Source of the DNA: Gemmatimonadota bacterium
GTDB taxonomy: Bacteria; Gemmatimonadota; Gemmatimonadetes; Longimicrobiales; Gaopeijiaceae
Length of the DNA stretch: 32,000 bases
Assembly (NCBI GenBank): GCA_040905545.1
Contig: JBBDRI010000032.1
Span: 89,230 to 121,229 of the forward strand
Direction of reading: 5' to 3'
A program made the position numbers and the translations under genes. Of this stretch, positions 4,079 through 32,000 are shown one piece after another. The notes under the pieces were generated by a model that saw only the letters and a program-made list of their open reading frames with translations, did no database searches and had not been told where the DNA came from. The first letter of the stretch is position 1, and each line of letters opens with the position of its first letter.

Positions 4079-4205
4079 TACAGAAATTATCTTAGCCTAT
4101 CAAAAATATCTACCATACCAACCCACACACCCCTTCCCGGGGAGTTGGGAACCGGGCAACTTTCGTACCAGCACTTCCACCCTGAACCCCGAGGTCGTCC
4201 ACACC
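4079..4205. promoter_or_regulatory. Divergent intergenic region (ATPase <-> glnN) with an AT-rich block and phased TATC repeats
   Basis: 4081-4120 (cagaaattatcttagcctatcaaaaatatctaccatacca) is by eye one of the most AT-rich stretches I saw in the high-GC core. TATC occurs at 4088, 4098 and 4107, at 9-10 bp phasing. No consensus promoter could be assigned. Confidence 0.3.
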
Positions 4206-6398
4206 ATGTCTTCCCGAGCTGCGAATCGCTTCGACTCTCTTCAGGCCGCCACCGGATGGAACCCCGAGAATGGTTCCGGCCACCGGACCGGAGGAGGAGA
4301 CTTCCTGGAAGAGATCTACGGATCCCGGACCTTCGGCCTTCCCCAGATGAAGGCCCGCCTGCCGAAGCATGTCTACAAGGCCCTTCTCAGCACCATCGAA
4401 GAGGGAACCCCCATCGATGCTTCCCTGGCTGATGCGGTAGCGGTGGCCATGAAGGATTGGGCCCTGGAGCATGGCGCCACCCACTTCACCCACTGGTTCC
4501 AGCCTCTCACGGGTCTCACGGCGGAGAAACATGACTCCTTCCTGACGGTGGGTCCCGATGGACGCGCCCTCTCGGAGTTCAGTGGGGGTGATCTGGTGCG
4601 GGGCGAGCCCGACGCCTCCTCCTTCCCATCCGGCGGCCTGCGGGCCACTTTCGAGGCTCGCGGTTACACCGCGTGGGACCCCACGTCTCCGGCCTTCCTG
4701 GTGGAGTCCCCCAGCGGGAGCGTCCTCTGCATTCCCACGGGCTTCACCTCGTGGACCGGGGATGCCCTGGACAAGAAGATCCCGTTGCTGCGCTCCCTGG
4801 ATGCCCTGGACAAGCAGACCCGTCGGGCACTGGAGCTCTTCGACGAGCCCGCCACCCGGGTCACGGCTAATCTGGGGCCGGAGCAGGAGTTCTTCCTGGT
4901 GGACCAGGAGTTCTTCTACCGCCGACCCGACCTCATGACCTCCGGACGCACCCTCTTCGGGGCACCCCCGCCCAGGGGTCAGGAGATGGAAGACCACTAC
5001 TTCGGCTCCATCCCTGAACGGGTCCTGGCGTTCATGCACGACGTAGAGACCGAGTTGTACCGTCTGGGGGTACCCATCAAGACCCGGCACAATGAGGTGG
5101 CGCCAGGCCAGTTCGAAATGGCCCCGGTCTATGAGCATGCGAACCTGGCCGCCGATCACCAGCAGCTCACCATGCTGGCCCTGCGAAAATACGCCCGGAA
5201 CTATGGACTCGTCTGCCTCATGCACGAGAAGCCTTTCGCGGGGGTGAACGGCTCGGGCAAGCACCTGAACTGGTCGTTCGGAACGGAGTCCAACAACCTG
5301 CTGGACCCCGGCGAGACCCCCCACGACAACCGTCTCTTCCTCTTCTTCACCACGGCGGTGCTGAGAGCCGTATTTCGCCATCAGGACCTCCTCCGGGCAG
5401 CCATCGCCCATCCCGGAAACGACCATCGTCTGGGGGCCAACGAAGCCCCCCCCTCCATCATCTCCGTCTTCCTGGGCGACCAACTCCAGGACGTCATGGA
5501 CCAGATCGCCGAAACCGGCGAGGCTCAGGGCAGTTCCGAGGGGGGACTTCTGGGCCTGGGAGTGTCCATCCTTCCGGCTCTGCCCCGGCATGCGGGTGAT
5601 CGGAACCGCACCTCACCCTTCGCCTTCACGGGCAATAAGTTCGAATTCCGGGCTGTGGGCGCGTCTCAGAGCATCTCCTTCCCCGCAACCGTGCTGAACA
5701 CCATCGCGGCGGAATCCATCGATGAGATGACCTCTGAGCTGGAGGAGGCTCTCAAGGGGGGCGCTGACCTGCGAGACGCCCTTCGGAGTCTCCTGGCCCG
5801 TGAGATCCGGGCCTGCAAGGACATCGTCTTCAACGGAGACGGATATTCCGACGAATGGGTGGAGGAAGCCGGGCGCCGGGGACTCCTGAACCTCCCCACG
5901 GCCATGGACGCCCTGCCGCGGCTGGTAGACGAGAAGAATCTCGGGTTGTTCGAGAAGTACGACGTGCTTCGCCCGAGGGAGTTGGAATCTCGCTATGAGA
6001 TCATGGTGGAGCGCTACTTCAAATCCATCAACATCGAAGGTGAGACCGCCGCCAACGTGGCTCGGACCATGGTGATCCCGGCAGCCACCCGATACATGGA
6101 CGAACTCCTGGGTGCTGTAGAAAAGGCAGAGGCCCGGGGAATCTCCAGCCCGGCGCTGTTTCGGGAGGCCCAGGAACTGTCAAAGCTTCTGAATGACGCC
6201 CTGGAGGCCCTTCGCACCCTGGAGGCCCAGAACGCAGAACTGGGAGGCGATACGGTTCACTCCAAGGCCGAGCATATGCGGAGCAACATCATTCCCGCCA
6301 TGCGTGCCCTCCGGGAGCACGCAGACCGGTTGGAGCGGACCGTGCCGGACGATCTGTGGCCGCTTCCCACCTACCGGGACATGCTCTTCGTCAAATAG
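4206..6398 (+). CDS. glnN: Glutamine synthetase type III
   Basis: 730 aa from ATG 4206, a typical GSIII length. Strong GSIII-like N-terminal region (FGSRTFGLPQMKARLPKHVYKALLSTIEEGTPID...ATHFTHWFQPLTGLTAEKHDSF) and catalytic core (HNEVAPGQFEMAP, EKPFAGVNGSGKHLNWS). The track's TTG at 4068 is an upstream extension. Confidence 0.93.
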   Translation: MSSRAANRFDSLQAATGWNPENGSGHRTGGGDFLEEIYGSRTFGLPQMKARLPKHVYKALLSTIEEGTPIDASLADAVAVAMKDWALEHGATHFTHWFQPLTGLTAEKHDSFLTVGPDGRALSEFSGGDLVRGEPDASSFPSGGLRATFEARGYTAWDPTSPAFLVESPSGSVLCIPTGFTSWTGDALDKKIPLLRSLDALDKQTRRALELFDEPATRVTANLGPEQEFFLVDQEFFYRRPDLMTSGRTLFGAPPPRGQEMEDHYFGSIPERVLAFMHDVETELYRLGVPIKTRHNEVAPGQFEMAPVYEHANLAADHQQLTMLALRKYARNYGLVCLMHEKPFAGVNGSGKHLNWSFGTESNNLLDPGETPHDNRLFLFFTTAVLRAVFRHQDLLRAAIAHPGNDHRLGANEAPPSIISVFLGDQLQDVMDQIAETGEAQGSSEGGLLGLGVSILPALPRHAGDRNRTSPFAFTGNKFEFRAVGASQSISFPATVLNTIAAESIDEMTSELEEALKGGADLRDALRSLLAREIRACKDIVFNGDGYSDEWVEEAGRRGLLNLPTAMDALPRLVDEKNLGLFEKYDVLRPRELESRYEIMVERYFKSINIEGETAANVARTMVIPAATRYMDELLGAVEKAEARGISSPALFREAQELSKLLNDALEALRTLEAQNAELGGDTVHSKAEHMRSNIIPAMRALREHADRLERTVPDDLWPLPTYRDMLFVK

Positions 6399-6471
6399 TA
6401 CAGACGGCAACGCGTGGGGCGGCTCTCCCTCCCGTGTTGTCTTGGCCCCTCCTTCTCTCCAGCTTGCTGAC

Positions 6472-8025
6472 ATGACCAGGGGAGGAGGGGCCGTTGCATG
6501 TGGGCACCCGGTGACATGCCGGGCCGCGGAAGACGTGCTGCGAGCAGGGGGCAACGCATTCGATGCGGTGGCCGCCGCACTCTGGACGGCGTGCGTGGCT
6601 GAACCCGTACTGGCTTCCGTTGGGGGAGGCGGGTTCCTCATGGCCCGCCCCCATGGGGAGGAAGCCAGGGTCTACGATTTCTTCACCCACACGCCCCACC
6701 GGAGGATCCCACCCGACATCGAGGACTTCCGGGAGATCCAGGCCGATTTCGGTGCGGCCCAACAGGGCTTCCAAATCGGGCTGGGCTCCGCTGCCACCCC
6801 GGGGATGGTGGCGGGCATCTTCCGGTTCCATTCAGAACTGGGAACCCTCCCCCGCCAGGATGTCATGGCTCCGGCCATCGAAGCCGCCCGCCGGGGAGTG
6901 CCTCTGAACGAGGTGGGTGCCTACCTGCTCCAGGTGCTTTCTCCCATCCTCACCGCTACCCCGGGCGCGCAGGCAATCTTCGCACCAGGGGGAAGCCTCC
7001 TCACCCCAGGGGATACCCTCCGGCAGGGAGAACTGGCCCACCTCCTGGAAGCGCTGCTCACGGAAGGACCCGACCTCTTCTACCGGGGAGAAGTGGCGGA
7101 CAAGATCGGGCGAGCCTGTGAGGAAGGCGGAGGCCATCTCACCCGGCAGGATTTTCAGCGGTACCGCGTCCAGGTGCGACGCCCCCTTTCCACCTCGTTT
7201 CGGGCCTCGCGGGTGTGGTCCAATCCTGCGCCGGCATCCGGGGGACTCATGGTGGCCTTCGCCCTCCAGATGCTGGCAGATCCCCGGAGCGCGAGGGAAG
7301 CCATGGAAGCTCCTCTGAACCCGGTGATCCGGGCGGCCCGGGCCCTGGCCGTGACCCAGCGCGCCCGCCTCCAGGAGGGCCTGCTGGACGGCCTGGACGA
7401 CCGGCGGGCGCTGGAAGTCCTCTCACCGGAGATACTGTCTCGATACCGGGCTCTCACACGCCAAGGGTGGCCGGCCACCCGGGGCACCACCCACATCAGT
7501 GTGGTGGATTCCCAGGGCGGGGCCGCAGCGGTGACGGTGTCCAACGGGGAGGGGTGCGGATGGATGGTTCCCGGCACCGGCTTCATGCTGAACAACATGC
7601 TGGGTGAGGAAGACCTTCAGCCCGGGGGATTCCAACGCTGGCCTCTGGCCCAACGCCTCACATCCATGATGGCTCCCACCCTGGTGGAGGAGCCAGACGG
7701 AACCATCACGGTGCTGGGCTCCGGCGGCTCCAACCGGATCCGCTCAGCTCTGGTTCAGGTACTTCGAAGTCTCCTGGAGGAGGGCGTTTCCCTGGAGTCT
7801 GCCATCGCTTTCCCTCGAATCCATGTGGAGGGCGAGACGCTGGAGGTGGAGGGCGGATTCCCATCCCACATCCTGGCCGAACTGGTGAAGGAATGGCCCT
7901 CTCATCGAATCTGGGACGGCATGAATCTGTTCTTCGGCGGGGTTCATGCAGTGCGGAGGGGCCCCGACCTGCTGGAAGCCGGCGGCGACCCGCGTCGGGG
8001 AGGCGTATCAACTCTGGTGGCGTAA
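6472..8025 (+). CDS. ggt: Gamma-glutamyltransferase (Ntn hydrolase)
   Basis: 517 aa from ATG 6472. AVACGHPVTCRAAEDVLRAGGNAFDAVAAA, autoprocessing/nucleophile site RGTTHISVVD, GFMLNNMLGEEDL, and MAPTLV are all GGT hallmarks. The track ORF from 6193 overlaps the glnN 3' end and is an extension. Confidence 0.92.
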   Translation: MTRGGGAVACGHPVTCRAAEDVLRAGGNAFDAVAAALWTACVAEPVLASVGGGGFLMARPHGEEARVYDFFTHTPHRRIPPDIEDFREIQADFGAAQQGFQIGLGSAATPGMVAGIFRFHSELGTLPRQDVMAPAIEAARRGVPLNEVGAYLLQVLSPILTATPGAQAIFAPGGSLLTPGDTLRQGELAHLLEALLTEGPDLFYRGEVADKIGRACEEGGGHLTRQDFQRYRVQVRRPLSTSFRASRVWSNPAPASGGLMVAFALQMLADPRSAREAMEAPLNPVIRAARALAVTQRARLQEGLLDGLDDRRALEVLSPEILSRYRALTRQGWPATRGTTHISVVDSQGGAAAVTVSNGEGCGWMVPGTGFMLNNMLGEEDLQPGGFQRWPLAQRLTSMMAPTLVEEPDGTITVLGSGGSNRIRSALVQVLRSLLEEGVSLESAIAFPRIHVEGETLEVEGGFPSHILAELVKEWPSHRIWDGMNLFFGGVHAVRRGPDLLEAGGDPRRGGVSTLVA

Positions 8026-8080
8026 CACCATCCAGGATGGGGGGCACCCGTACCTGGGCGCCTCACTCCGACTTTTGAAG

Positions 8081-8908
8081 TCAGTCCGGCTTGTGCAGGT
8101 GGACGTCCGTCTGCGGATACGGGATGGAGCAACCTGCCGCCTCCAACTCCTCTTTGAAAGTCCGAACCAGATCTCTCCGGAGTCCCCAGTAGTCTTCGCT
8201 ATTGCACCAGGGCCGCACCACGAAATTCACCGAACTGTCCGCCAGCTCATCCACGGCGATGAGGGGTTCGGGCTCGGCCAACACCCTCTTGTCTGCTCCG
8301 ATAACCCTCTCCAGTACTCCCTGCACCACCTTCAGGTCGTCGTCATAGGAAACCCCCACCACCAGATCCACCCGGCGGGTGGGGTTCGCCGAGAAGTTGC
8401 GGATGGTCTCCGTGAATACCTGGGAGTTGGGAATGGTGACCCGGATGTTGTCGCCGGAGTGGAGCACGGTGAAAAAGAGTCCTACCTCCTGCACGGTCCC
8501 CGAAGTTCCAGCCACATCCACCCAGTTACCCACCACAAACGGCCGAAAGGTGAGGAGCATGACTCCAGAGGCGAAATTGGCCAGCGTGCCCTGCAGCGCC
8601 AGACCCACCGCCAAACCTGCGGCACCCAGCACAGCGATGGCCGACGCGGTCTGCACCCCGAAAAGGTTCAGGACCGCCAGGACCACGAAGACCATGAGGC
8701 CCCAATAGGCCAGCCCCGAAAGGAACGGGATGAGGGTGGGGTCCAACCCTGTACGACCCAGATTGTCCCGGAGGCCCGTCCGGATTCGGGTAGCCACCCA
8801 ACGGCCCAGCAGGAACACGGCCAGTGCACCCAAGGCACTCAGTCCAAATTCGGTGAGGTACTCCACCAGCGTGTCCAGATGCCCTTGCACCGCGAATGAC
8901 TCCTGCAT
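8081..8908 (-). CDS. mscS: Small-conductance mechanosensitive channel (MscS family)
   Basis: 275 aa, three N-terminal TM helices, then the MscS pore/beta-domain signature GAAGLAVGLALQGTLANFASGVMLLTFRPFVVGNWVDVAGTSGTVQEVGLFFTVL...IPNSQV. Convergent with ggt. Confidence 0.9.
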   Translation of the reverse strand: MQESFAVQGHLDTLVEYLTEFGLSALGALAVFLLGRWVATRIRTGLRDNLGRTGLDPTLIPFLSGLAYWGLMVFVVLAVLNLFGVQTASAIAVLGAAGLAVGLALQGTLANFASGVMLLTFRPFVVGNWVDVAGTSGTVQEVGLFFTVLHSGDNIRVTIPNSQVFTETIRNFSANPTRRVDLVVGVSYDDDLKVVQGVLERVIGADKRVLAEPEPLIAVDELADSSVNFVVRPWCNSEDYWGLRRDLVRTFKEELEAAGCSIPYPQTDVHLHKPD

Positions 8909-9092
8909 CGGTCCTATTCCTCTATCTCAAATGGTCTGGTCTGTGGGCGCTTGATCTGCTCAAGGGTGGCCAGCCCCTCTCCCGGGCTGCCAACCCCGGA
9001 AGCCACTTCATGTTTCGGAACCCATGTACCGTGCCAGACTTCCTGGACCCGCATTTGACAGGAGTGGTTAATGAGGCCTAGCCTCGTTGGCC

Positions 9093-10712
9093 ATGCATAC
9101 GCTCCCCAGCCCGCCGCGCCGCACTTCCGTCCGCTCCCTTGGACCCAGGCTTGCCCTGCCTCTCCTCCTCCTGGCCGGAGGGGCATGTCAAGATGGAGCG
9201 ACACCGGCCCTGGACGGCGCGGGAAGCGTCGAGGCAGTGGAACTCACCATTCGAGAGCTCCATTCCGCTCTGGCAAACCGTCGGACCCGTTGCCGTGCCG
9301 TTATCCAGGCTCATCTGGATCGAATCCACGCGTACGACGAATCTTCCGGGCTACACGCCGTCACCGAGATAAACCCCAACGCCCTGACCACCGCGGATTC
9401 CATCGACGCCGCCCTTGCCGCCGGGGCCCCCATGGGTGCCATGGCCTGCGTCCCGGTACTGGTGAAGGACAACTTCAACACCCACGATCTCCCCACCACG
9501 GGAGGGTCGGTTGCCCTCCTGGGGAATATCCCTCCCACGGATGCCTTCATGGTACGTCGGCTCAGGGAGGAGGGCGCCGTCATCCTGGCCAAGACGAATA
9601 TGGCCGAATGGGCGTTCAGCCCCCGTCAGACCATTTCGTCCTCCTATGGGACCACCGCCAACGCATACGATCTGGCTCGGGTCCCCGCAGGATCCAGTGG
9701 GGGCTCTGCATCCGGGGTGGCAGCGGCGTTCGGAGTAGTGGGGTTGGGAAGCGACACGGGCAATTCCATCCGGGGGCCGGCTTCGCACCTGGCCCTGGTG
9801 GGGATCCGGTCGACCTTGGGTCTCACATCCCGCTCAGGCGTGATTCCCCTGAGCTTCGATCGGGATGTAGCCGGCCCTCTCACCCGCACGGTGGAAGACG
9901 CGGCTCGCGTGTTCAACGTGGTGGCAGGAACCGATCCTGAGGATCCATACACCGACCTGGGCGGCCACCTTCGCGAGGCCGACTACACCTCGTTTCTCGT
10001 ACCCGATGCCCTGGAAAGCCGGAAGGTGGGAGTGATCCGACGGTTCGCGGACCCTTCCACCGCAGATCCGGAGGTCCTACAGCGTTTCCAGGAGGCTCTT
10101 GAGGTGTTGGCGGAGCAGGGAGCCGACATCATGGATCCCTTCCCACTTCCGGAACTGGATGCGTGGCTATCGCAGGCCACCTTCTGTCGCCGTTTCCGAT
10201 ACGACGTTCACCAGTACCTCCTCTCCCTTGGGTCCGACGCCCCGATTCTGGACCCCCTCACCGTGCTGGAAACCGGAGACTTCGGCTCCGACGCCGAGGC
10301 GGGGCTTCGGTCGTTCGGAGAGGGCCCCCTGAATGTCCATCCAGCGCAGGCTGATCCGCCGTGCCTGGACTTCGCTCAGCATCCCGGTAGACAGCGGCTT
10401 CTCAACAATGTGATAATGGCCATGGACGAGGCGGGGCTGGACGCACTGGTCTTCCCCACCTGGAGCCACCCTCCGGCGCCTCTGGACCGGGGGAACGAGG
10501 AGTACCGCGGCGACAACAGTCAAGGCCTGGTACCCTCTGCGGGCCTTCCAGCCATCACGGTCCCCATGGGATTCACGCAGGGCACCCTGCCGGCCGGCCT
10601 CCAGTTCGCGGGGAGGCCGTACTCCGAAGGACTGCTCTTCGGACTGGCCTTCGCATACGAACAAGCCACCTTACATCGTCGCCCCCCCTCAGCCTTCCCT
10701 CCCCTGCCTTGA
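9093..10712 (+). CDS. Secreted amidase (amidase-signature family)
   Basis: AS-family Gly/Ser-rich signature GGSSGGSASGVAAAFGVVGLGSDTGNSIRGPAS with catalytic-Lys context (VLVKDN). N-terminal signal or lipoprotein sequence LALPLLLLAGGAC. The track start at 9087 is TTG; ATG at 9093 is two codons later. Confidence 0.9.
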   Translation: MHTLPSPPRRTSVRSLGPRLALPLLLLAGGACQDGATPALDGAGSVEAVELTIRELHSALANRRTRCRAVIQAHLDRIHAYDESSGLHAVTEINPNALTTADSIDAALAAGAPMGAMACVPVLVKDNFNTHDLPTTGGSVALLGNIPPTDAFMVRRLREEGAVILAKTNMAEWAFSPRQTISSSYGTTANAYDLARVPAGSSGGSASGVAAAFGVVGLGSDTGNSIRGPASHLALVGIRSTLGLTSRSGVIPLSFDRDVAGPLTRTVEDAARVFNVVAGTDPEDPYTDLGGHLREADYTSFLVPDALESRKVGVIRRFADPSTADPEVLQRFQEALEVLAEQGADIMDPFPLPELDAWLSQATFCRRFRYDVHQYLLSLGSDAPILDPLTVLETGDFGSDAEAGLRSFGEGPLNVHPAQADPPCLDFAQHPGRQRLLNNVIMAMDEAGLDALVFPTWSHPPAPLDRGNEEYRGDNSQGLVPSAGLPAITVPMGFTQGTLPAGLQFAGRPYSEGLLFGLAFAYEQATLHRRPPSAFPPLP

Positions 10713-10853
10713 GTCGTAGGATGCCAGCCGTGGTCGTTGGACTTTCGGGGCAATCTGCCCCAGATTCTCCCCCTCCGTGCCCGTCGCCTTCCTGGGACGA
10801 TCCCGGATCCATCTCGTGTTGAACCATCTACTCTTTGATTGTGAGCAAAGCCC

Positions 10854-11342
10854 ATGCGAAGCATAGCATCCCACTCTCCTATGAGCCTGACTCTTATGAG
10901 CCTGACTGCCACCGCGTTCCTGGTAGCTTGTGGCGGAACCGATGCCCCACCGGCAACCGATATGGCGGAGTCCCCAGCGCCCACCGAGGCCGCCACCCAG
11001 GTCTGGTTCGAGTCGCCGGTTGACGGTGAAGTGGTGGAAGGCCCCGACGTATTGGTGAGGTTCGGGCACAGCGGGATCGAGTTGGTACCTCCCGATGAAC
11101 CTCGTCCAGGGGAGGGTCATCATCACATCTTCGTGAATGTGGACGTCACACCCATGGGCCAGGTCATCCCCGCAGGACGGGAAGGGATCATCCATATGGG
11201 CGACGCCTCGTCGGAGTACCTGCTGGAGGGACTGGAGCCGGGTGCGTATCGTCTCATTACCGTCATGGCCGATGGTCTGCACATTCCCCTGGATCCCCCG
11301 GTGGTGGATACCGTGAATATCACGGTGGTGGAACCGCAGTGA
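10854..11342 (+). CDS. DUF4399-like lipoprotein
   Basis: 162 aa, lipobox LTATAFLVACGG, and the GHHHIFVN motif I associate with DUF4399 domains. The family assignment is from memory of that motif only. Confidence 0.6.
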   Translation: MRSIASHSPMSLTLMSLTATAFLVACGGTDAPPATDMAESPAPTEAATQVWFESPVDGEVVEGPDVLVRFGHSGIELVPPDEPRPGEGHHHIFVNVDVTPMGQVIPAGREGIIHMGDASSEYLLEGLEPGAYRLITVMADGLHIPLDPPVVDTVNITVVEPQ

Positions 11343-11455
11343 GTGAAAGGGTTGCCAAGCGGCAACCTCGCATCGCACCGTAGAAACAACCGGGGAAGGC
11401 CGCGGGCCATCATTCGAGGCTGTTCCCGCTATTCCACCGTCACAAAGGAGGATTT

Positions 11456-14290
<2,835 letters not shown>

Positions 14291-19197: not shown

Positions 19198-20454
19198 CTA
19201 GCGGTTCCCCCCGGAGCCGTTGCCCCCGTTGTTCCTCCGGCGGGCCCGGCGTTCCTCGCCTGAACCACTCCGGGTGGGAGGCGGCGGGGATTTCACCTGC
19301 GTTCCCCGGGGGGTTACGGCGGGACGGTTGGGCTGGCTGGTTCCCCTGGACGGCGTGGAACCGCGGGCCGACGAGCCAGACCCGGAACCTCCTCCGGAAA
19401 TGTAGCCCCGGTTCCGATCCACCCGGCTCCGGTCCTGAACGGTGGGCGGTCTCACCACCACCACCGTGGAACCGGCTCCAAAACGGGGATACCCCCACCC
19501 GTAGTTCCCGTAGCCGTAAGACCCATAGCTGTAACCGTAGCGGGAATAGAAGGGGTCATAGCCGTAGAACCCGCCGTATCGGGGACCAAAGGGGCCGGCA
19601 CCGTAGATCCTGCGAGAACCGTAGGGCCGATAGCTTTCCCCCGAGACGTCCCGGCTTCCACCCTGCAGAGCGAAGCGTTCGGGGTAGGTGGTGGCCACCA
19701 TGACATCCAACACCTCTCCCGGGAGCCCCTGGGCCGCCAACTCCCTGATGGTGGCGGCATTCAGGGCGAAGGCCTGCTCCCTCTCCGCTACCAGGGCTCC
19801 GGCCCCGTGGGCCCCCACCACCTCCACCAACTCCAGCACATCGTCAGGGGTGAGGGCCGAAGCGGCCTCCGCTCTTGCGGTGGCCACTGCCAGCGACAGT
19901 CCCTGAGACGGGTCGGTGACTCCGTGGAACGCCAGACTGGCACTTCCTGCGGGACGGAACCGACGCATTCCCAGCAGGGGGTCGCCTCCCTGGGCCCGGA
20001 TGCTCTGCACCTCGATCCACTCCCTGCCGTCAGGTAGGAAGCTGAAGACGGAACGGCCTTCGTGAAGCAGGCCTTCCCCACACACCATCTGGGAGGAGAG
20101 GAAGAACCTCCGCCCATCGTCGGACCACTCTCCCCGCTGCTCGCCACTGCATCCCTCATCCTCCAGAGCCGTGGCCACCCCATCGCTTCGAAGCACCTCC
20201 CGAGCCGTGGCTTCACCACCCTGGTAGGACACGAGCTGCACGGCCAAGCCGCCTTCCAGAGGCGTCACGCAGAGGAGGAATTCGGGGAACTCCGCCTCTT
20301 CCGAAAGCTCGGATGAGGAAGAAGCAGGAGCACCGTCCACCGACTCCCAACATCCTACCCACGGGAGCCAGCGATCGGCATTCTGAGCCTCGGCTCCCAC
20401 AGGCATGGAGAGGCCCAGAAAGGCAAGACTGGTAAGGAGGATGGGGTTTCTCAT
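19198..20454 (-). CDS. Secreted hypothetical protein with Gly/Tyr-rich segment and basic disordered tail
   Basis: GGGAG RBS before ATG 20454. Signal peptide MRNPILLTSLAFLGLSMPVGAEA|Q, then a Cys-containing N-domain. Paired helical motif follows (DDVLELVEVVG / GEVLDVMVATT). Residues 274-328 contain 14 Tyr and 15 Gly in 55 aa. Residues 341-418 are a S/G/R/P-rich basic tail. Confidence 0.7.
   Translation of the reverse strand: MRNPILLTSLAFLGLSMPVGAEAQNADRWLPWVGCWESVDGAPASSSSELSEEAEFPEFLLCVTPLEGGLAVQLVSYQGGEATAREVLRSDGVATALEDEGCSGEQRGEWSDDGRRFFLSSQMVCGEGLLHEGRSVFSFLPDGREWIEVQSIRAQGGDPLLGMRRFRPAGSASLAFHGVTDPSQGLSLAVATARAEAASALTPDDVLELVEVVGAHGAGALVAEREQAFALNAATIRELAAQGLPGEVLDVMVATTYPERFALQGGSRDVSGESYRPYGSRRIYGAGPFGPRYGGFYGYDPFYSRYGYSYGSYGYGNYGWGYPRFGAGSTVVVVRPPTVQDRSRVDRNRGYISGGGSGSGSSARGSTPSRGTSQPNRPAVTPRGTQVKSPPPPTRSGSGEERRARRRNNGGNGSGGNR
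19471..19635 (-). repeat. Coding low-complexity region (Gly/Tyr-rich, recurring CCGTAG/GTAGCC units on the + strand)
   Basis: Encodes SYRPYGSRRIYGAGPFGPRYGGFYGYDPFYSRYGYSYGSYGYGNYGWGYPRFGAG. The DNA shows reiterated ccgtag / gtaacc / gtagcc units. Confidence 0.8.
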
Positions 20455-25630: not shown

Positions 25631-28171
25631 ATGCACCGGAAACCCGTCTCCGTCTCGCGCCTCCCGGCATCCCGCACAGCCGCCAGTCGAGCCATGATTC
25701 TTGCATTCGGCCTCCTGGCCGTCACGCTTTCGGCCCCTGGGGCCTCGCCCCTGGCCGCGCAGTCCGGCTCCTTCGGGGTGTCGGCAGAGGTGTCGGTGGA
25801 TGAGCTCATCATCGCCGAGCCCAACAACTACTTCCGCCCGGGGCAGGTGCACGTGTACCGTCGGGGCGGCGGCGGATGGGTGGTGGGCCAGGTGCTGGAG
25901 GCCCCCAACGCGGAGCGGGCCGACGGCTTCGGAACTGCGGTGGCCCGGACGGAGAATACCCTCTTCGTTTCCCAGAAGAATGGCCCGGTACATCGCTTCC
26001 AGCGCAGTGGTGACCGGTGGAACCATGTCGGGGTTCTCCCAGGCACCGACGGACTGGGTTTCGACCCGGGTTGCAACCAGTACGGCTACTGCGGCATCGA
26101 CTTCGGCCTGACCCTCGCTGCTTCGGGACCATGGCTCCTGATTGGGGAACCTGGACCTTCGCCCGAGTCGTTGAATCCGGAGGATGAGGCCATGGCCGGC
26201 CGAATCCACCTCTTTTGGCAGAACGCCGCCGGCCAGTGGGCCGCCGCCGGAACCCTGTCACCCAGCGACGGTGTGCCGGGAGACGGTTTCGGGAGCGCCA
26301 TCGCAGTGGACCTTTCCCCGGAAGGAGGGATTGCCCTGGTGGGCGCCCCCCGTTGGCACATCCCAACCCCGGATTCCCCCGGGGAGCCCCTGGGACGGGT
26401 CTACCGCTTCCAACTGGATGGCCAGGCGTGGAGGGAAGCAGGGGCCCTCCCGGCCTCCCCTGGCTCCAACGCAGGGTTTGGATCCGCCCTGGCCCTCTCG
26501 GAAGATCGGCTTGTTGTAGGGAGCCCAGGTGCTGACGATGGGGTGGGTACCGCCGTCCTCTATCGCCGGAGCGGAGCTGATGGCGGATGGAGCCAGGCGT
26601 TCACCATTTCCCCTCCGGACGGGGAGCGGGGCGACCTGTTCGGGAGCGCCGTGGGTCTGGACGGAAACGACATCTGGGTGGGAGCCCCCACGGACCGGGG
26701 GGAGGAAACGGGCCGGGTCTACCGCTTCGATGGGGCTACTGCCCCGGGTGCCACCCCTCCGGCAGGGCCCAGCCAGCGGATCCAGTTCCAAGAGCCGGAG
26801 ACCGTGACCCGCGACCGTCTGGGAGCCCGCATCGTGGCAGGTTCCGGGGTGGCGCTGGTCACCGCCACCGGCATGCACCACCAGGCGGGAGCCGTCTTCG
26901 TGCACCGCCGGAACGGCGATACGTGGCAGGACGAGGGAATGCTGGTGACACCTCCAGATGCCCTCCAGGCCATGGTGGGCTCGGAGGAGATCTGCGGAGA
27001 GGAGGGGCAGGTGGGCGTATTCGATTGCGAAGGAGTGGATCTGCTGGCCTTCGTGTCCACTTCTCTTCTCCGGGACGGTCATTGGGCCCGGGGAGTCCGC
27101 ATGAACGACAACTGGGGGTGGACGGACCCGGAGACCGGAAGGGAATACGCGTTGATCGGTCGAAACGACGGCACCTCCTTCGTGGACGTCACCAACCCTT
27201 CCAACCCCGTGTTGGTGGGCGACCTCCCCAAGACCCCCAACACTCCACCTTCCCAGCTCTGGCGGGACATCAAGACCTACGACAGCCACGCCTTCATCGT
27301 GGCGGACGGGGCGGGGAACCACGGGATGCAGGTGTTCGATCTACGGCGCCTCCGCAGCGTCCAGGACGCCCCGGCCCTGTTCCAGCCCGACGCACACTAT
27401 CCCAATGTGGCCAGCGTCCACAACATCGTCATCAATGAGGACTCGGGATTCGCGTATCTGGTGGGGTCCCGCGGTGGCGGTGAGACCTGTGGCGGGGGGC
27501 TCCATATGGTGGACATCCGTACACCTCTGAGCCCCACCTTCGCAGGCTGCTTCGCCCATGAGGGCACCGGGCGCCAGGGCACCGGTTCCACCCATGATGC
27601 CCAGTGCGTCATCTACCAGGGTCCCGACGAGCGCTACCACGGCCAGGAAATCTGCCTGGGAGCCAACGAGAATCTGCTGAGCATCGCCGATGTCACGGAC
27701 AAGTCGAATCCGGTGCCCCTGGCCACGGCCGCCTACCCCAACCCCGGGTACCTCCATCAGGGATGGCTCACGGAAGATCAGCGCTACTACTTCATGGACG
27801 ACGAAGCCGACGTGATCCAGGGCACGGTGAAGACCACCCGGACCATGATCTGGGACCTTCAGGATCTGGAAGATCCGGTACTGGCCAATGAGTTCATGGG
27901 CTCCATGCCCGCCAGTGCCCACAACCTGTACATCAAAGACGATCTGATGTACCAGGCCAACTATCGGCACGGACTCCACATCCTGGATGTGAGCGACCCA
28001 TTGAACCCCTTGGAACTGGCCCACTTCGATACGGCGCCCTATCTGTCTGGGCCCGGGTTCAGCGCCGCCTGGAGCAACTACCCGTTCTTCGAGAGCGGGA
28101 GCATCGTGGTCACCAGCGTGCAGGAGGGCTTCTTCCTTCTCCGGAAGCAGGATCCGGATTTGGTGTTCTGA
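25631..28171 (+). CDS. Large secreted protein: N-terminal FG-GAP-like beta-propeller repeats plus C-terminal choice-of-anchor-B / LVIVD-like domain
   Basis: Signal peptide (MILAFGLLAVTLSAPGASPLAAQ). Repeated x-D-G-F-G-x-A-hydrophobic units (DGFGTAVA, DGFGSAIAV, AGFGSALAL, DLFGSAVGL). The C-terminal half has NDNWGWTDPETGREYALIGRNDGTSFVDVTNPSNPVLVGDLP...LWRDIKTYDSHAFIVADGAGNHGMQVFDL, which I recognise as choice-of-anchor B. The start could be 25631 or 25694 (both ATG). Confidence 0.8.
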   Translation: MHRKPVSVSRLPASRTAASRAMILAFGLLAVTLSAPGASPLAAQSGSFGVSAEVSVDELIIAEPNNYFRPGQVHVYRRGGGGWVVGQVLEAPNAERADGFGTAVARTENTLFVSQKNGPVHRFQRSGDRWNHVGVLPGTDGLGFDPGCNQYGYCGIDFGLTLAASGPWLLIGEPGPSPESLNPEDEAMAGRIHLFWQNAAGQWAAAGTLSPSDGVPGDGFGSAIAVDLSPEGGIALVGAPRWHIPTPDSPGEPLGRVYRFQLDGQAWREAGALPASPGSNAGFGSALALSEDRLVVGSPGADDGVGTAVLYRRSGADGGWSQAFTISPPDGERGDLFGSAVGLDGNDIWVGAPTDRGEETGRVYRFDGATAPGATPPAGPSQRIQFQEPETVTRDRLGARIVAGSGVALVTATGMHHQAGAVFVHRRNGDTWQDEGMLVTPPDALQAMVGSEEICGEEGQVGVFDCEGVDLLAFVSTSLLRDGHWARGVRMNDNWGWTDPETGREYALIGRNDGTSFVDVTNPSNPVLVGDLPKTPNTPPSQLWRDIKTYDSHAFIVADGAGNHGMQVFDLRRLRSVQDAPALFQPDAHYPNVASVHNIVINEDSGFAYLVGSRGGGETCGGGLHMVDIRTPLSPTFAGCFAHEGTGRQGTGSTHDAQCVIYQGPDERYHGQEICLGANENLLSIADVTDKSNPVPLATAAYPNPGYLHQGWLTEDQRYYFMDDEADVIQGTVKTTRTMIWDLQDLEDPVLANEFMGSMPASAHNLYIKDDLMYQANYRHGLHILDVSDPLNPLELAHFDTAPYLSGPGFSAAWSNYPFFESGSIVVTSVQEGFFLLRKQDPDLVF

Positions 28172-28189
28172 GCTCCGACGGGTGGCTGC

Positions 28190-28213
28190 CTGTGACAGTC
28201 TTGTGACCTCACA
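28190..28213. promoter_or_regulatory. Two short palindromes / TGTGAC direct repeat upstream of intI (candidate operator)
   Basis: CTGTGACAG (28190-98) and TGTGAccTCACA (28202-13). TGTGAC recurs 11 bp apart, 46-69 bp upstream of ATG 28259. A CCCCGG-ctgca-CCGGGG hairpin follows at 28223-39. Confidence 0.3.
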
Positions 28214-28258
28214 TGCCCTGTTCCCCGGCTGCACCGGGGGGAGATCCGTCCGTGTCGT

Positions 28259-29287
28259 ATGTCCCAAACCGACATGGCCTTGCACCTCCCGTGGGGCGAG
28301 ACTGGAGTCATGTCGTCCCCCGGGCCCTCCATTCTGCATGAACTGAGCGTCGCGATTCGAACACGCCACTACAGCCGGCGGACGGAGCAGGCCTACGCCC
28401 ACTGGGTGGAGCGCTTCCTGGGTCACCATAGGGTTCGGTCACCGGAACAGCTTGGTGCCGAAGAAGTCAACGCGTTCTTGAGTCACCTGGCCGTGGAGCG
28501 GAAGGTGGCGGCGCCCACGCAGGCCCAGGCCAGGGCTGCGTTGCTCTTTCTATACCGGCACGTCCTCCGAAGGCCGCTGGATGCTGAGGTCGGTACTGGA
28601 TCCATCGTCCGTGCGCACGTTCCCAAGCGGCTTCCGATGGTCCTCTCGAGGCAGGAGATTCGGGCGCTTCTCGCCTCAATGACGCCCCCGGGCCGTACCG
28701 TGGCCCTCCTCCTCTACGGCGGAGGGCTCCGCCTGAATGAGGCGCTCCACCTTCAGGTTCATGACCTCGAGTCTGAGCGCGGTCAGCTTACCGTACGGGG
28801 AGGGAAAGGGAACCGCGACCGCATCACCCTTTATCCCGCAGCTGCCGTTCCGGCGGTGGAGGAACAGCTCCGACGCACCCGCCTGATGCATGAGCGGGAT
28901 CTAGCTCGGGGCGCCGGGAATGTCCCCCTTCCTGCGGCGTTGGCCCGCAAGTACCCCGGCGCGCCCCGGGAGTGGGGATGGCAGTGGCTTTTCCCGGCTT
29001 CCCGGCTTCACCACAGCCCTCGCACCGGCGCCGGATTCCGGTGGCCGCTTCACCCCTCAGCGGTGCAGCGGGCCGTCAAGGAGGCTGTGAGGGCAAGTGG
29101 AATCTCGAGTCGAGCGTCCTGCCACACCCTCCGGCATTCCTTCGCCACCCATCTCCTGGAGGACGGCTATGACATCCGTACGATCCAGGAGCTTCTGGGA
29201 CACCGCAGCGTGAAGACGACCATGATCTACACACACGTTCTGGACCGGGGAGGACGAGGTGTCCGGAGTCCTCTCGATGGGTTGTGA
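28259..29287 (+). CDS. intI: Integron integrase (IntI-type tyrosine recombinase)
   Basis: N-terminal IRTRHYSRRTEQAYAHWVERFLGHH. Box I: LLLYGGGLRLNEALHLQVHDL. The IntI-specific insertion PLPAALARKYPGAPREWGWQWLFPASRL...SPRTG is absent from XerC/D. Box II: CHTLRHSFATHLLEDGYDIRTIQELLGHRSVKTTMIYTHV, then the C-terminal GVRSPLD. An alternative start is ATG 28310 (MSSPGPSILHEL). Confidence 0.93.
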   Translation: MSQTDMALHLPWGETGVMSSPGPSILHELSVAIRTRHYSRRTEQAYAHWVERFLGHHRVRSPEQLGAEEVNAFLSHLAVERKVAAPTQAQARAALLFLYRHVLRRPLDAEVGTGSIVRAHVPKRLPMVLSRQEIRALLASMTPPGRTVALLLYGGGLRLNEALHLQVHDLESERGQLTVRGGKGNRDRITLYPAAAVPAVEEQLRRTRLMHERDLARGAGNVPLPAALARKYPGAPREWGWQWLFPASRLHHSPRTGAGFRWPLHPSAVQRAVKEAVRASGISSRASCHTLRHSFATHLLEDGYDIRTIQELLGHRSVKTTMIYTHVLDRGGRGVRSPLDGL

Positions 29288-29504
29288 TGTCGTCTTGCCC
29301 CGTAGCGCTTCCTTCCTGCGCCGGCATGCAGCCCAATGGAGGAATCCTGCCCAAGCGATAGGCGGCGCCCGGGGCAGTACAACACGTCAACGAGGTTCTT
29401 GCGAAGCCGGAAGGGGCCCAACACCTTAGCGAATCAAGGAGGCGCCCGGCCCCGGTCGTTTGAGTGGCATCAGGGGAAAGGATCATCCACCCGAATACGT
29501 GGCG

Positions 29505-29541
29505 GTTGAACGGTCGGTGGGCGGCTGAAAGGGCGTTAGAG
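29505..29541 (+). other. Candidate attI core with recombination point G(29535)|T(29536)
   Basis: GTTAGAG at 29535-41 is in the context GGCGTTAGA, identical to the GGCGTTAGA at the attC R' box (31376-84). Its reverse complement CTCTAAC is exactly the R'' box closing cassette 1. A second GTTRRRY-type box, GTTGAAC, is at 29505-11. The extent and architecture of attI are not resolved. Confidence 0.5.
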
Positions 29542-31379
29542 GACCTGCGAGCGGGAGACATTTGTTGCGAATCAATACTAAGGGCGCCCTTGCGCTCTTC
29601 CTGCCAGTGGCCATTGCCGCGTGCCACATCGTTGGGCAGTCCGTGAGCGACGGCGAGGACCTCGCCGCCGTGGGCAGCCTTGCCCTCAAGCACGCATCCG
29701 TCGTCTCGTTGACGGGGGACTCCGTACTCCGAGACTGGACGCTCGTTCTTGCGGACGGCGAGATTGTCGCGCTCGGGCCGACGGGTTCGGTCCCGATACC
29801 TAGAGGAGCTCAGGTCCGCGACTTGGACGGACGCTACGTCGTTCCAGGCCTAATCGATGCGCATGTTCATCTGAGGGAACCTGCACTGAGCCTGGCGTTG
29901 TTTCCTTCGTACGGTGTCACAACAGTGGTGAACCTTCAGGGTGAAGCGTCACACCTCGCCCTGCGGGATTCGATCCTCGCGCACGGGATCTTCGCCCCCC
30001 GCATCCTGTCTTCTGGCCCATTCATCGACCGGGTTGTGAAGTCGCCTGCGGAGGCGAGGCAGGAGGTCCGGCGCCAGCACGGCGCGGGCTTCGATCTGAT
30101 CAAGATCCATGGAGTGATGGAGGAGCGCACGTTCGCGGCCACCATCGAGGAAGCACGCCGATTGGGCCTGCCGGTAATCGGCCATCACCCGAGGAATCTC
30201 GAGACCGGCACGGTGCTCGAGGGGCTCGACGCACTCGCTCACGCCGAGGAGCTCCTCCGATCATCTCTTCTCGATCAGCCGCGTGGACTCGCATCGGACT
30301 CGGTGGACGTGTTAGCCCGCACCGTGGTCGAGTCCAACACCAGACTGATTACGACACTCGGGTTCTTTACGGGCATGCGGGATCAGGCGACCGACCATTT
30401 CTACCAGATGATCAGCCAGCCCGAGTTGGCCTATGTGTCGCCCGAGCGTCGCAGGGAGTGGCTCTACGACGGACACCGTGAGTACATCCCCCGCTCCGAG
30501 CTTCCCTGGTACGACACGGCCGTCGTCATCCTCCACAGGGTCACCGGTGCAATCCACAAGCGAGGCGGTGTGATCATCGCGGGTACGGACACTCCTCTCG
30601 AGTTTACGATCCCCGGAATATCACTTCATCGGGAGCTGCAGCATCTGGTCGCCGCCGGGCTCACGCCGCTCGAGGCGTTGCGCGCGGCAACCGTTTCATC
30701 AGCCGACCTGCTGGGAGCCCCGGCGCTGGGAAGAATAGAAGTCGGCGCGTCGGCGGACCTCCTCATCCTCAGCCAGGATCCCACCCATTCGTTGGCCGCG
30801 CTTGACGAACTGGAGGCGGTGATCTTGCGAGGAATGTGGATTCCGAGGACTGAGCTGGAGCGGAGACTCAATCACGTCGCAGCGGCCTATGCGCGGGAGG
30901 ATGTCGCGTGGGCTGCTGGTCAACGGATCCAGGATGCCGTCATGGATCTGCTTCATAGCGAGGGGATACCGGCAGCGTTTTCCGAGATTCAGCGTATATC
31001 CGAGATTCCGGGCGTCCCCCCGATGACCGAACGTGACCTTAACACGATCGGCTATCGGCTACTCGCCAATTCGGCGATCAACAGGGCGATCGAAGTGTTC
31101 CAGCTCAATGCACGGCTCCACCCAGGTTCCGCGAACGTGTACGACAGCCTCGGTGAAGCGTTGCTAACGGCGGATCGCCTCGACGAAGCGGAGACGAACT
31201 ATCGTCGTGCCTTGGAACTCGACTCTACCATGGATTCGGCCCGACGCGGTTTGCGAACGATCGCGGAAAGACGTTGTGACGCAGAAGTTTGCCGGTGAGC
31301 GCAGGAGGTCGCGGTGGTCCTCTAACAGGCCGATGAACCTGCCGGTCGCCTTCGGCGCCCGCAGGTTATCGGCGAGGCG
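29536..31379 (+). mobile_element. Integron gene cassette 1 (1844 bp)
   Basis: It starts TTAGAG and ends with the G of the attC R' box. Circularising it would rebuild R' = G+TTAGAG, perfectly complementary (7/7) to its own R'' CTCTAAC (31320-26). It holds a single + strand ORF. Confidence 0.75.
29562..31298 (+). CDS. Secreted/lipoprotein amidohydrolase (COG1228-like metallo-hydrolase) with C-terminal TPR repeats
   Basis: Lipobox LPVAIAAC. Amidohydrolase metal-site motifs: PGLIDAHVHL, FDLIKIHG, VIGHHP, AHAEEL, IIAGTDTP. C-terminal TPR-like segment: ANVYDSLGEALLTADRLDEAETNYRRALELDS. TTG starts at 29562 and 29565, with GGGAG at 29553-57. Confidence 0.85.
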   Translation: MLRINTKGALALFLPVAIAACHIVGQSVSDGEDLAAVGSLALKHASVVSLTGDSVLRDWTLVLADGEIVALGPTGSVPIPRGAQVRDLDGRYVVPGLIDAHVHLREPALSLALFPSYGVTTVVNLQGEASHLALRDSILAHGIFAPRILSSGPFIDRVVKSPAEARQEVRRQHGAGFDLIKIHGVMEERTFAATIEEARRLGLPVIGHHPRNLETGTVLEGLDALAHAEELLRSSLLDQPRGLASDSVDVLARTVVESNTRLITTLGFFTGMRDQATDHFYQMISQPELAYVSPERRREWLYDGHREYIPRSELPWYDTAVVILHRVTGAIHKRGGVIIAGTDTPLEFTIPGISLHRELQHLVAAGLTPLEALRAATVSSADLLGAPALGRIEVGASADLLILSQDPTHSLAALDELEAVILRGMWIPRTELERRLNHVAAAYAREDVAWAAGQRIQDAVMDLLHSEGIPAAFSEIQRISEIPGVPPMTERDLNTIGYRLLANSAINRAIEVFQLNARLHPGSANVYDSLGEALLTADRLDEAETNYRRALELDSTMDSARRGLRTIAERRCDAEVCR

Positions 31380-31385
31380 TTAGAC
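31320..31385 (+). other. attC recombination site (66 bp)
   Basis: R'' is CTCTAAC (31320-26) and R' is GTTAGAC (31379-85, fits GTTRRRY). L'' GATGAAC (31332-38) pairs with L' GTTATC (31365-70). 31329-50 pairs with 31354-73 over 20 bp, with one mismatch (C31343/C31360), two bulged bases (G31335, T31346) and a 3-nt apical loop (ttc). It starts 21 nt after the cassette-1 stop. Confidence 0.8.
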
Positions 31386-32000
31386 AGCGCGAAATCTGCC
31401 GAATGGATATAGGAAGGGCTTTGGCCGAGTTGGCGCACTGGATTTCGAAGTAGTACATCATCCGCGCAAGCCGGAACTTTAGGCCCTGGCGGAGTTCTTG
31501 TCCCCCCTTTTCGGTAGGAGGCGGTGATGCTGCTACGCACGACGGTCGTCGTTCTCTTAGCGGCAATGTTCGGAGCCTGCGGTGCTGCACCCGCGGCGGA
31601 TGACCTCAGGGAGGAGCTACGCACTTCGTCCGATCAATACTGGGCGGCAGTGGCTCGCCAGGATGCCGAGGAGGTTACGAGTTGGTGGCTCGAGGACGCC
31701 GTGGTGCTCGGCTCGGGAATCCACCTCGTGGGGCGAGCCGCACTGCAAGAGATGCTTGAGGGACTCTACCCGGCTTTGACGGTCCACAACATGGAAGTCT
31801 TGGATCGAAGCATCGACGCTGCTGGGAACCTTGGTATCGAAAGGGCGCGGTACCGCGAGGTGATCAGTCTTGGTGGGGGGCCACAGCAGACTGTAGACGG
31901 GTCCTATCTCGCTCACTGGCGCCGCGACTCGGAAGGTCAGTGGAGAATCAAGGCAATGGTACTCGCTACTGCCGGTGCTGACTCGCTTCACTCGCAGTAA
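31380..32000 (+). mobile_element. Integron gene cassette 2 (5' boundary defined; 3' attC beyond the window)
   Basis: It begins TTAGAC at the attC crossover and contains one + strand ORF ending exactly at 32000. Its own attC is expected to have R'' = GTCTAAC and is not in the window. Confidence 0.6.
31527..32000 (+). CDS. SnoaL-like / DUF4440 (NTF2-fold) lipoprotein
   Basis: AGGAGG (31516-21) lies 5 nt before ATG 31527; GTG 31524 is the track start. Lipobox LLAAMFGAC. The size (~157 aa) and pattern (YWAAVARQDAEEVTSWWLEDAVVL...GSYLAHWRRDSEGQWRIKAMV) are typical of DUF4440/SnoaL_3 proteins. TAA stop at 31998-32000. Confidence 0.7.
   Translation: MLLRTTVVVLLAAMFGACGAAPAADDLREELRTSSDQYWAAVARQDAEEVTSWWLEDAVVLGSGIHLVGRAALQEMLEGLYPALTVHNMEVLDRSIDAAGNLGIERARYREVISLGGGPQQTVDGSYLAHWRRDSEGQWRIKAMVLATAGADSLHSQ

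Follow-up and report, generated by a model that had tools for sequence, protein, structure and literature searches.

A probable co-oriented ('inverted integrase') chromosomal integron in a Longimicrobiales (Gemmatimonadota) genome

The integrase gene and its cassette array

The DNA considered here is a 32,000-nt stretch of contig JBBDRI010000032.1 from a bacterium of the Longimicrobiales (Gemmatimonadota), called the window throughout; the region of interest is positions 28259-32000. On the + strand of this region lie an integron integrase gene (intI), a spacer of about 250 bp, a putative attI site and then at least two gene cassettes with one open reading frame (ORF) each (Table 1). This arrangement, in which intI reads toward the cassettes, is very probably that of a complete chromosomal integron of the 'inverted integrase', or co-oriented, type. 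Loci used for comparison carry L numbers. A set of integrase (IntI) homologues restricted to one genome per species gave 80 loci at 45-61% identity, and a large protein database supplied closer relatives, at 80, 75, 71, 69, 68 and 66% identity, from which four contigs were compared. The locus itself is also represented by a Logan contig (L001, SRR27977661_21780, 4035 bp), retrieved via proteins from internal ATG starts, which shows no mismatch to window positions 28071-32000 across the 3930 bases in common and extends 105 bp beyond the window end.

Table 1. Features at and beside the integron, in window coordinates (a slash marks the putative crossover)
Feature	Coordinates	Strand	Basis
Choice-of-anchor B / FG-GAP + LVIVD protein, 874 aa	25547..28171	+	TIGR04312 (416 bits); FG-GAP_2, LVIVD
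intI, integron integrase	28259..29287	+	TIGR02249, Pfam, alignment to 2A3V
GCAGCCCAA motif in spacer	29328..29336	+	recurs once or twice in relatives' spacers
Conserved spacer element of ~58 bp, GCAGTACAAC..AACGAGGTTCTTGCGAA..CACCTTAGC	29374..29431	+	conserved in relatives
Putative attI core, TGAAAGGGCG/TTAGAG	29526..29541	+	conservation in relatives
Cassette 1, 1844 bp	29536..31379	+	interval between two GTT crossovers
attC of cassette 1	31320..31385	+	covariance model R1, R/L-box heuristic, bottom-strand fold
Cassette 2, continues past window	31380..32000	+	ORF, and partial attC in L001

Judged from its sequence, the product of intI is an integron integrase, and we consider this call firm because of its score against the curated model TIGR02249 'integron integrase' (389.9 bits, cut-off 265) and its full-length alignment to a crystallized member of the family, insertion and catalytic motifs included. 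The XerC and XerD models give only 145-150 bits, their cut-offs being about 330, and the Pfam domains are Phage_int_SAM_4 and Phage_integrase. Residues 14-323 align to Vibrio cholerae VchIntIA (crystal structure, PDB 2A3V) with E=5e-81; the IntI-specific insertion ALARKYPGAPREWGWQWLFPASRLHHSP pairs with VchIntIA residues about 203-240, and the catalytic R-K-H-R-H-Y set is intact, with GLRL, GKG, HTLRHSFATH, LGH and IYTH all kept. Translation from the ATG at 28259 yields 342 aa, while the start preferred by the gene caller in L001, the ATG at 28310, yields 325 aa. The 17 intervening codons (28259-28309) are in frame, and their translation has a protein-level likeness in the relatives L082 and L084 (MSQ..MA..P.GE.G.MS), so the longer start may be genuine despite the gene caller's choice.

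The attC site was identified with a covariance model, R1, built from 12 attC sites at three loci in other phyla, where repeats of 76-90 nt with GCCTAAC...GTTAGGC ends lie beside intI, and run with filters off. The window's site is shorter and had been misaligned in a first alignment (A1); since it was for that reason left out of R1, a match to it is an independent test. In the 32 kb R1 gave one significant match, the interval listed in Table 1, at 42.8 bits and E=4e-9. The runner-up scored 11.3 bits (E about 0.9), the same interval read on the minus strand scored 6.2 bits, and no attC was found by R1 in the 28 kb upstream of intI. A heuristic that seeks paired R boxes (NNNNAAC...GTTNNNN) plus an adjoining L-box helix returned the same interval as its sole match in 32 kb; it proved noisy on AT-rich loci, though fine on the window, and was given up in favor of the covariance model. 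An Rfam scan of the entire window matched no family, and no attC-like family appeared in its results.

The attC is 2033 bp away from the intI stop and comes directly behind the ORF of cassette 1. Its top strand reads R'' CTCTAAC, a 2-nt spacer, L'' GCCGAT[G]AACCTG, a terminal stem-loop, L', a 5-nt spacer and R' GTTAGAC. Folded as DNA, the bottom strand reaches -22.6 kcal/mol (z=-3.7; none of 200 shuffles was as good), in a structure where the TCTAAC and GTTAGA R boxes pair, the spacer stays open and the L box forms a helix, and with single bases bulging out of the 3' arm. The unpaired bases of an attC decide which of its strands recombines (PMC5027507), and by this rule the arm on which they stand makes + the top strand and - the recombined strand, in agreement with the cassette ORFs, which read on +.

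Cassette 1 spans the 1844 bp from the GTTAGAG at 29535 to the next GTTAGAC, at 31379. Its ORF (29562/29565-31298, 578/577 aa) takes up about 94% of the interval between crossovers and encodes a protein of the amidohydrolase fold (Amidohydro_1/3) with a C-terminal TPR_12 domain. The ORF of cassette 2 (31524/31527-32000, 158/157 aa) is DUF4440/SnoaL-like (DUF4440, SnoaL_4). By eye, each cassette ORF is preceded by its own Shine-Dalgarno sequence. L001 ends in TCTAACGAGGGCGTGAAGCTGACGCG, which starts about 80 nt past the DUF4440 stop at the window end and agrees at 23 of 26 positions with the 5' half of an attC in L082 (L082:17684); a second attC therefore starts about 80 nt beyond the window, and L001 is cut off within it, which is common where assemblies meet repeats. 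The 5' halves of the window attC and of this partial site are alike at 16 of 26 positions. Both cassette proteins have lipoprotein-like N termini when inspected by eye (…LPVAIAAC…, 29562-29640; …LLAAMFGAC…, 31524-31590), and the two captured genes may thus encode exported or envelope proteins.

A preliminary description of this DNA had proposed much of this layout, and in these respects it stands. It took the 342-aa ORF for a tyrosine recombinase with the IntI insertion, and its suggested comparison of an IntI-specific model with XerC/D came out clearly on the side of IntI. It placed an 874-aa gene and nothing cassette-like 5' of intI, a GTTAGAG about 248 bp past the end of intI, an 1844-bp cassette followed by a folded attC, all ORFs on the intI strand, and an array continuing past 32000. 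The gene is there, as choice-of-anchor B / FG-GAP; the heptamer begins exactly 248 bp after the stop; and an attC model, also suggested as a check, finds a site downstream on the intI strand and none upstream.

The putative attI and the spacer before it

The GTTAGAG at 29535 stands 27 nt ahead of the first cassette ORF. Heptamers of the GTTRRR type occur three times within 420 bp after intI, so a lone heptamer means little. The evidence for an attI comes from relatives. A 13-nt core, TGAAAGGGCG/TTA, contains the GTTAGAG at 29535; as a 13-mer, TGAAAGGGCGTTA, it is shared letter for letter by the window, L084, L085 and L086, and L082 differs from it at one position. In every case the core stands on the same strand as intI and 215-276 bp beyond the stop codon of that gene (IntI 66-80% identical to the window's), and it occurs once in the window versus 0.02 times expected by chance. 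Directly past the GTTA of the core the relatives' sequences are unrelated. An attI should look like this if different first cassettes had been joined to it, conserved as far as the crossover and divergent past it, and we therefore regard the conserved core as a putative attI, with the crossover probably between G29535 and T29536 (G/TT). When folded as one strand, the intI-attI spacer yielded no sign of a hairpin (z=+1.8), which fits a double-stranded attI. A metagenome-wide scan with the attI core GNTGAAAGGGCGTTA returned at least 120 loci; among the matches listed there was no IntI nearby, and one unrelated hit had 30% identity. These matches were set aside as chance, and the scan was uninformative.

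Two further elements recur in the spacer. The GCAGCCCAA motif is found at +41 from the intI stop in the window, at +42 and +190 in L082, at +106 and +152 in L083 and at +135 in L085; one guess is that it serves as an accessory integrase-binding repeat. The longer element, of about 58 bp, is kept in the window, in L082 (10570-10630) and in L084 (5500-5560), while the sequence adjoining it varies. It holds an imperfect palindrome whose left half is degenerate in the window; the L084 version has a perfect 8-bp inverted repeat, CGCAAGAA-N5-TTCTTGCG. The hexamers TTGCGA and CACCTT within it keep a constant spacing of 17 nt around variable intervening sequence. From its conservation and form the element could be a candidate promoter or operator for the cassettes, possibly an unusual promoter. 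Sigma-54 and sigma-70 readings were tried, by eye and with a sigma-70 scan, and neither fits in the window. As an RNA it gave no convincing covariation in RNAalifold; given this and the missing fold signal, we do not call the spacer element an RNA.

Relatives, flank and stability at the locus

Scanning the 80 homologous loci with R1 at E<=0.01 showed attC sites downstream of intI on the same strand in 14 loci, where L060 reaches 22 sites and L073 reaches 19, and upstream on the opposite strand, the classical orientation, in 20, mostly from Cyanobacteria and Chloroflexota. No third configuration was seen in these loci, save weak reverse-strand echoes of a few very strong + sites, and the strand calls of R1 are therefore meaningful. 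Among the closer relatives, L082 (IntI 80% identical) carries five to seven attCs on + past intI, accompanied by small ORFs and a toxin-antitoxin pair, and in L090 (66%) a single attC follows intI on +. L006 (61%) and L089 (63%) are in classical orientation. In L010, a Longimicrobiales locus with the nearest IntI from a reference genome (56%), a search with filters off gave no attC in the 10 kb to each side of intI, so that the locus carries no information on orientation. In its own right L010 (10001-11200) appears as an In0-like state, with a GTTAGGC 190 bp past the intI stop.

In neighbor-joining trees, all 100 bootstrap replicates unite the window, L082, L085, L083, L090 and two short contigs in one clade, and the members with detectable attCs (L082 and L090) are co-oriented. 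The next annotated neighbors of the clade are classical in 58% of the bootstraps and co-oriented in 35%.

The left boundary of the element is defined by a sister contig, L087, which carries a 90%-identical copy of the flanking choice-of-anchor gene and is collinear with the window, the nucleotide identity being 83-85%. Similarity stops exactly at the stop codon of that gene, at 28171, and L087 continues with an alpha/beta-hydrolase gene and no intI. We take this stop codon as the left edge of the inserted region, resolved to the base by the alignment. Homologues of the 874-aa flanking protein are named Longimicrobiales or Gemmatimonadota, and the left 28 kb encode glutamine synthetase III, gamma-glutamyltranspeptidase, an amidase, a TonB-dependent receptor, a pyrroloquinoline quinone dehydrogenase, O-acetylhomoserine sulfhydrylase and a CoA-binding protein. 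No transposase was found in the window. In L082 intI adjoins a gene for electron transfer flavoprotein-ubiquinone oxidoreductase (ETF-QO) rather than the FG-GAP gene. With L087 lacking the element and L082 carrying it beside a different flank, the element is chromosomal but not fixed at this locus.

Two claims of the preliminary description need to be qualified by these results. It spoke of a sedentary chromosomal integron beside 28 kb of housekeeping genes: the metabolic genes and the lack of a transposase bear out the chromosomal location, whereas stable presence at the locus is not supported. It had also asked whether the cassette region might be fixed in synteny among relatives, and the alpha/beta-hydrolase gene at that place in L087 indicates that it is not. 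The drop in GC content that it reported after about 29300 is real but small, from 0.644 (1-28171) to 0.621 (29288-32000). GC at third codon positions is 0.78-0.80 in the core genes and falls to 0.73 for intI and to 0.72 and 0.67 for the two cassette ORFs, which fits a horizontally acquired element, though the shift is not striking.

Several observations on the relatives deserve mention in their own right. Loci without R1 hits are often cut short, their contigs running out no more than a few hundred bp from intI on the flank that would hold the array in their clade; in L002-L081 contigs often end 30-570 bp from intI, upstream in classical clades and downstream in co-oriented ones, and assembly break points could thus predict array orientation. 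L084 (GCA_041743405.1, JBGTMU010000111.1), from the same assembly as L082, has a truncated intI of 262 aa, 80% identical, preceded by a 111-aa fragment of the ETF-QO gene that flanks the L082 intI (L084:4176-5439). This intI lies within an array, with + attCs upstream (71, 945, 2639) and downstream (6418-13201), many toxin-antitoxin cassettes and insertion sequence fragments, and it has the appearance of a copy of the integron's left junction that was duplicated or rearranged and is now embedded in an array. A 131-nt stretch of L082 beginning at the attI crossover (10732-10862) recurs with 100% identity at 19924-20054, behind the attC at 19845-19932 and at the contig end. Either the same cassette is present twice (or in two variants within the population) or the assembly graph overlaps there; if genuine, the repeat is a footprint of cassette movement. 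In L089 (8001-13813), where attCs lie upstream on -, intI is followed on the same strand by imuB-like (IMS) and dnaE2-like (PHP/DNA_pol3_alpha) genes, so that an integron integrase adjoins an SOS-mutagenesis gene pair. L075 (Neomarinimicrobiota) has, right after the intI stop (4106-4310), tandem heptamers at 7-nt or 6-nt spacing (GTTGGGC/GTTGGGA/GTTAGGA, then GTTGAAA, then GTTGAAG); these are core-site-like, unusual, and placed where an attI is expected.

Interpretation and comparison with known integrons

On the reading we prefer, which follows the example of integrons already studied, IntI would bind the folded bottom (-) strand of an attC and recombine it with attI, thereby inserting a circular cassette, and recombination between two attCs would excise one. 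With - as the recombined strand, cassettes would be fixed with their ORFs on +. As to expression, there is no terminator-like hairpin between intI and the cassettes, and the cassettes might be transcribed by messages that begin at the intI promoter and run on, or by messages that begin at a promoter within the conserved element of 58 bp. Indirect hints that recombination takes place are the presence/absence polymorphism seen with L087 and the start of a cassette in two contexts in L082.

Some results weigh against this reading. The window holds one complete attC, the second being known as a 26-nt 5' half only. The R-L spacers of the complete site, at 2 and 5 nt, are short and asymmetric, the textbook norm being 5-6 nt in both arms, and its first unpaired bottom-strand base is C, not the usual G (PMC5027507). 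As acidobacterial arrays show the same spacer and C features, these departures look like a trait of the lineage and not a flaw in the site. The attI assignment is a comparison of five sequences, and no clear inverted L box was identified at the putative attI. Finally, a sigma-70 scan of 27900-32000 gave no consensus match, by rules that do not cover Gemmatimonadota promoters.

It could be argued that the locus is a decaying remnant, in which intI and one or two attC-bearing genes persist without recombination and the genes are ordinary and fixed. The single full attC would suit such a state, as would the absence of attC within 10 kb of intI in the Longimicrobiales locus L010 and the truncated intI of L084, the assembly-mate of L082. 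However, the window IntI is full length with all its catalytic motifs, the attC folds well and keeps its asymmetric unpaired bases, and the attI core is conserved. The element is also present or absent between genomes with 85% nucleotide identity in the flank, which points to recent gain or loss, and the 131 nt after attI in L082 equal the 131 nt after a distal attC, as expected for a cassette in two contexts. Hence, we consider a remnant improbable. That the integrase is unrelated to the array, an XerC/D-like or phage integrase beside a cluster of attC sites lacking integron-integrases (CALIN) that belongs to another integrase further right, is very improbable, since the curated model identifies the protein as an IntI. 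CALINs are common (PMC4889954), and with the window ending at 32000 the far end of the array might carry another intI in divergent orientation, but such a gene would need attCs on the strand opposite to its own; the orientation of the attC found sets the attI end at the left, by this intI. The attI core, moreover, keeps a near-constant distance from the intI stop in four relatives with different cassettes, and the co-oriented layout recurs in L082, L090 and 14 more distant loci.

The notion that 31320-31385 is a terminator or chance hairpin, and the GTTAGAG at 29535 a chance match, draws on the position of the hairpin just past a stop codon, the usual place of a terminator, and on the frequency of GTTRRR-type heptamers after intI. 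It has to contend with the lack of a T-run after the hairpin, a terminator scan that does not report it, the paired R boxes TCTAAC/GTTAGA, and a match in sequence and structure, on one strand only, to a model made from attCs of other phyla; the conservation of the 13-nt attI core, so rarely expected in the window, adds to this, and we regard the notion as close to negligible. A complete co-oriented integron thus remains our reading. A more specific and rather unlikely proposal is that the Longimicrobiales-type IntI clade (window, L082, L085, L083, L090) acquired co-orientation on its own, starting from ancestors of the classical type seen in L006 and L089. It would have its own control region, the 250-bp spacer, in which the conserved palindromic element, as operator or promoter, couples cassette expression to intI transcription, and attCs with a strand-selecting unpaired C and 2/5-nt spacers.

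The element adds a cleanly delimited co-oriented integron from a poorly studied phylum and leaves the current picture of integrons unchanged. Mildly new are a left boundary placed to the base, the clade's candidate attI core and conserved spacer element, and the non-canonical spacer and bulge identity of the attC. It may become a test case for cassette expression when intI reads into the array and for the tolerance of IntI to non-canonical unpaired bases and spacers in attC.

The inverted integron-integrase group was reportedly described by Boucher in 2007, and its original definition is said to have been a single clade. Cury et al. found the inverted group 'clearly paraphyletic' in 2016 (PMC4889954), and the classical neighbors at 61-63% (L006, L089) fit this published paraphyly. 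The group is one of three broad IntI groups (PMC3575428); in Treponema denticola and related species intI is transcribed toward attI, in the direction of the cassettes (PMC3607928), and recent metagenome work treats co-orientation as one of two expected orientations (PMC13323075). The preliminary description had named both T. denticola and the inverted group as precedents, correctly. Integrons have also been reported in Gemmatimonadota (PMC8618304). Given these studies, the architecture, uncommon as it is, the patchy phylogeny and the host phylum all have precedents.

The window and 14 or more related loci share the layout of the T. denticola type of inverted-integrase integron. The host, unlike T. 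denticola, belongs to the Longimicrobiales, and the window IntI is only about 50% identical to the spirochete homologues (L023, L051, L080). With the superintegron of Vibrio cholerae (VchIntIA and its attC repeats, the VCRs) the window has in common the integrase family, the insertion and the catalytic residues, as well as the Vibrio-type logic of its attC: R''/R' boxes of the form RYYYAAC/GTTRRRY, an L box, and unpaired bases in one arm with a 6-bp stem between them. It differs from the classical Vibrio type in that intI is not divergent from the array, the attC spacers are of 2 and 5 nt rather than 5-6 nt per arm, and C takes the place of G as the first unpaired base of the bottom strand. 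The closest match in attC design is seen in metagenome-assembled genomes of Acidobacteriota/Thermoanaerobaculia (L060, L073, L077, L055, L022, L024, L070), which are co-oriented and have the same 2-nt/5-nt spacers and top-strand G bulge as the window; a model made from acidobacterial sites recognizes the window attC at 42.8 bits. Their IntIs are 50-56% identical to the window's, and their attCs are 76 nt long and very uniform within each array (80-96 bits), whereas the window's, at 66 nt, is more divergent. The acidobacterial attI also lies closer to intI, with an intI-attI spacer of 58-75 bp in the co-oriented L060, L073, L077 and L055 versus about 250 bp in the window.

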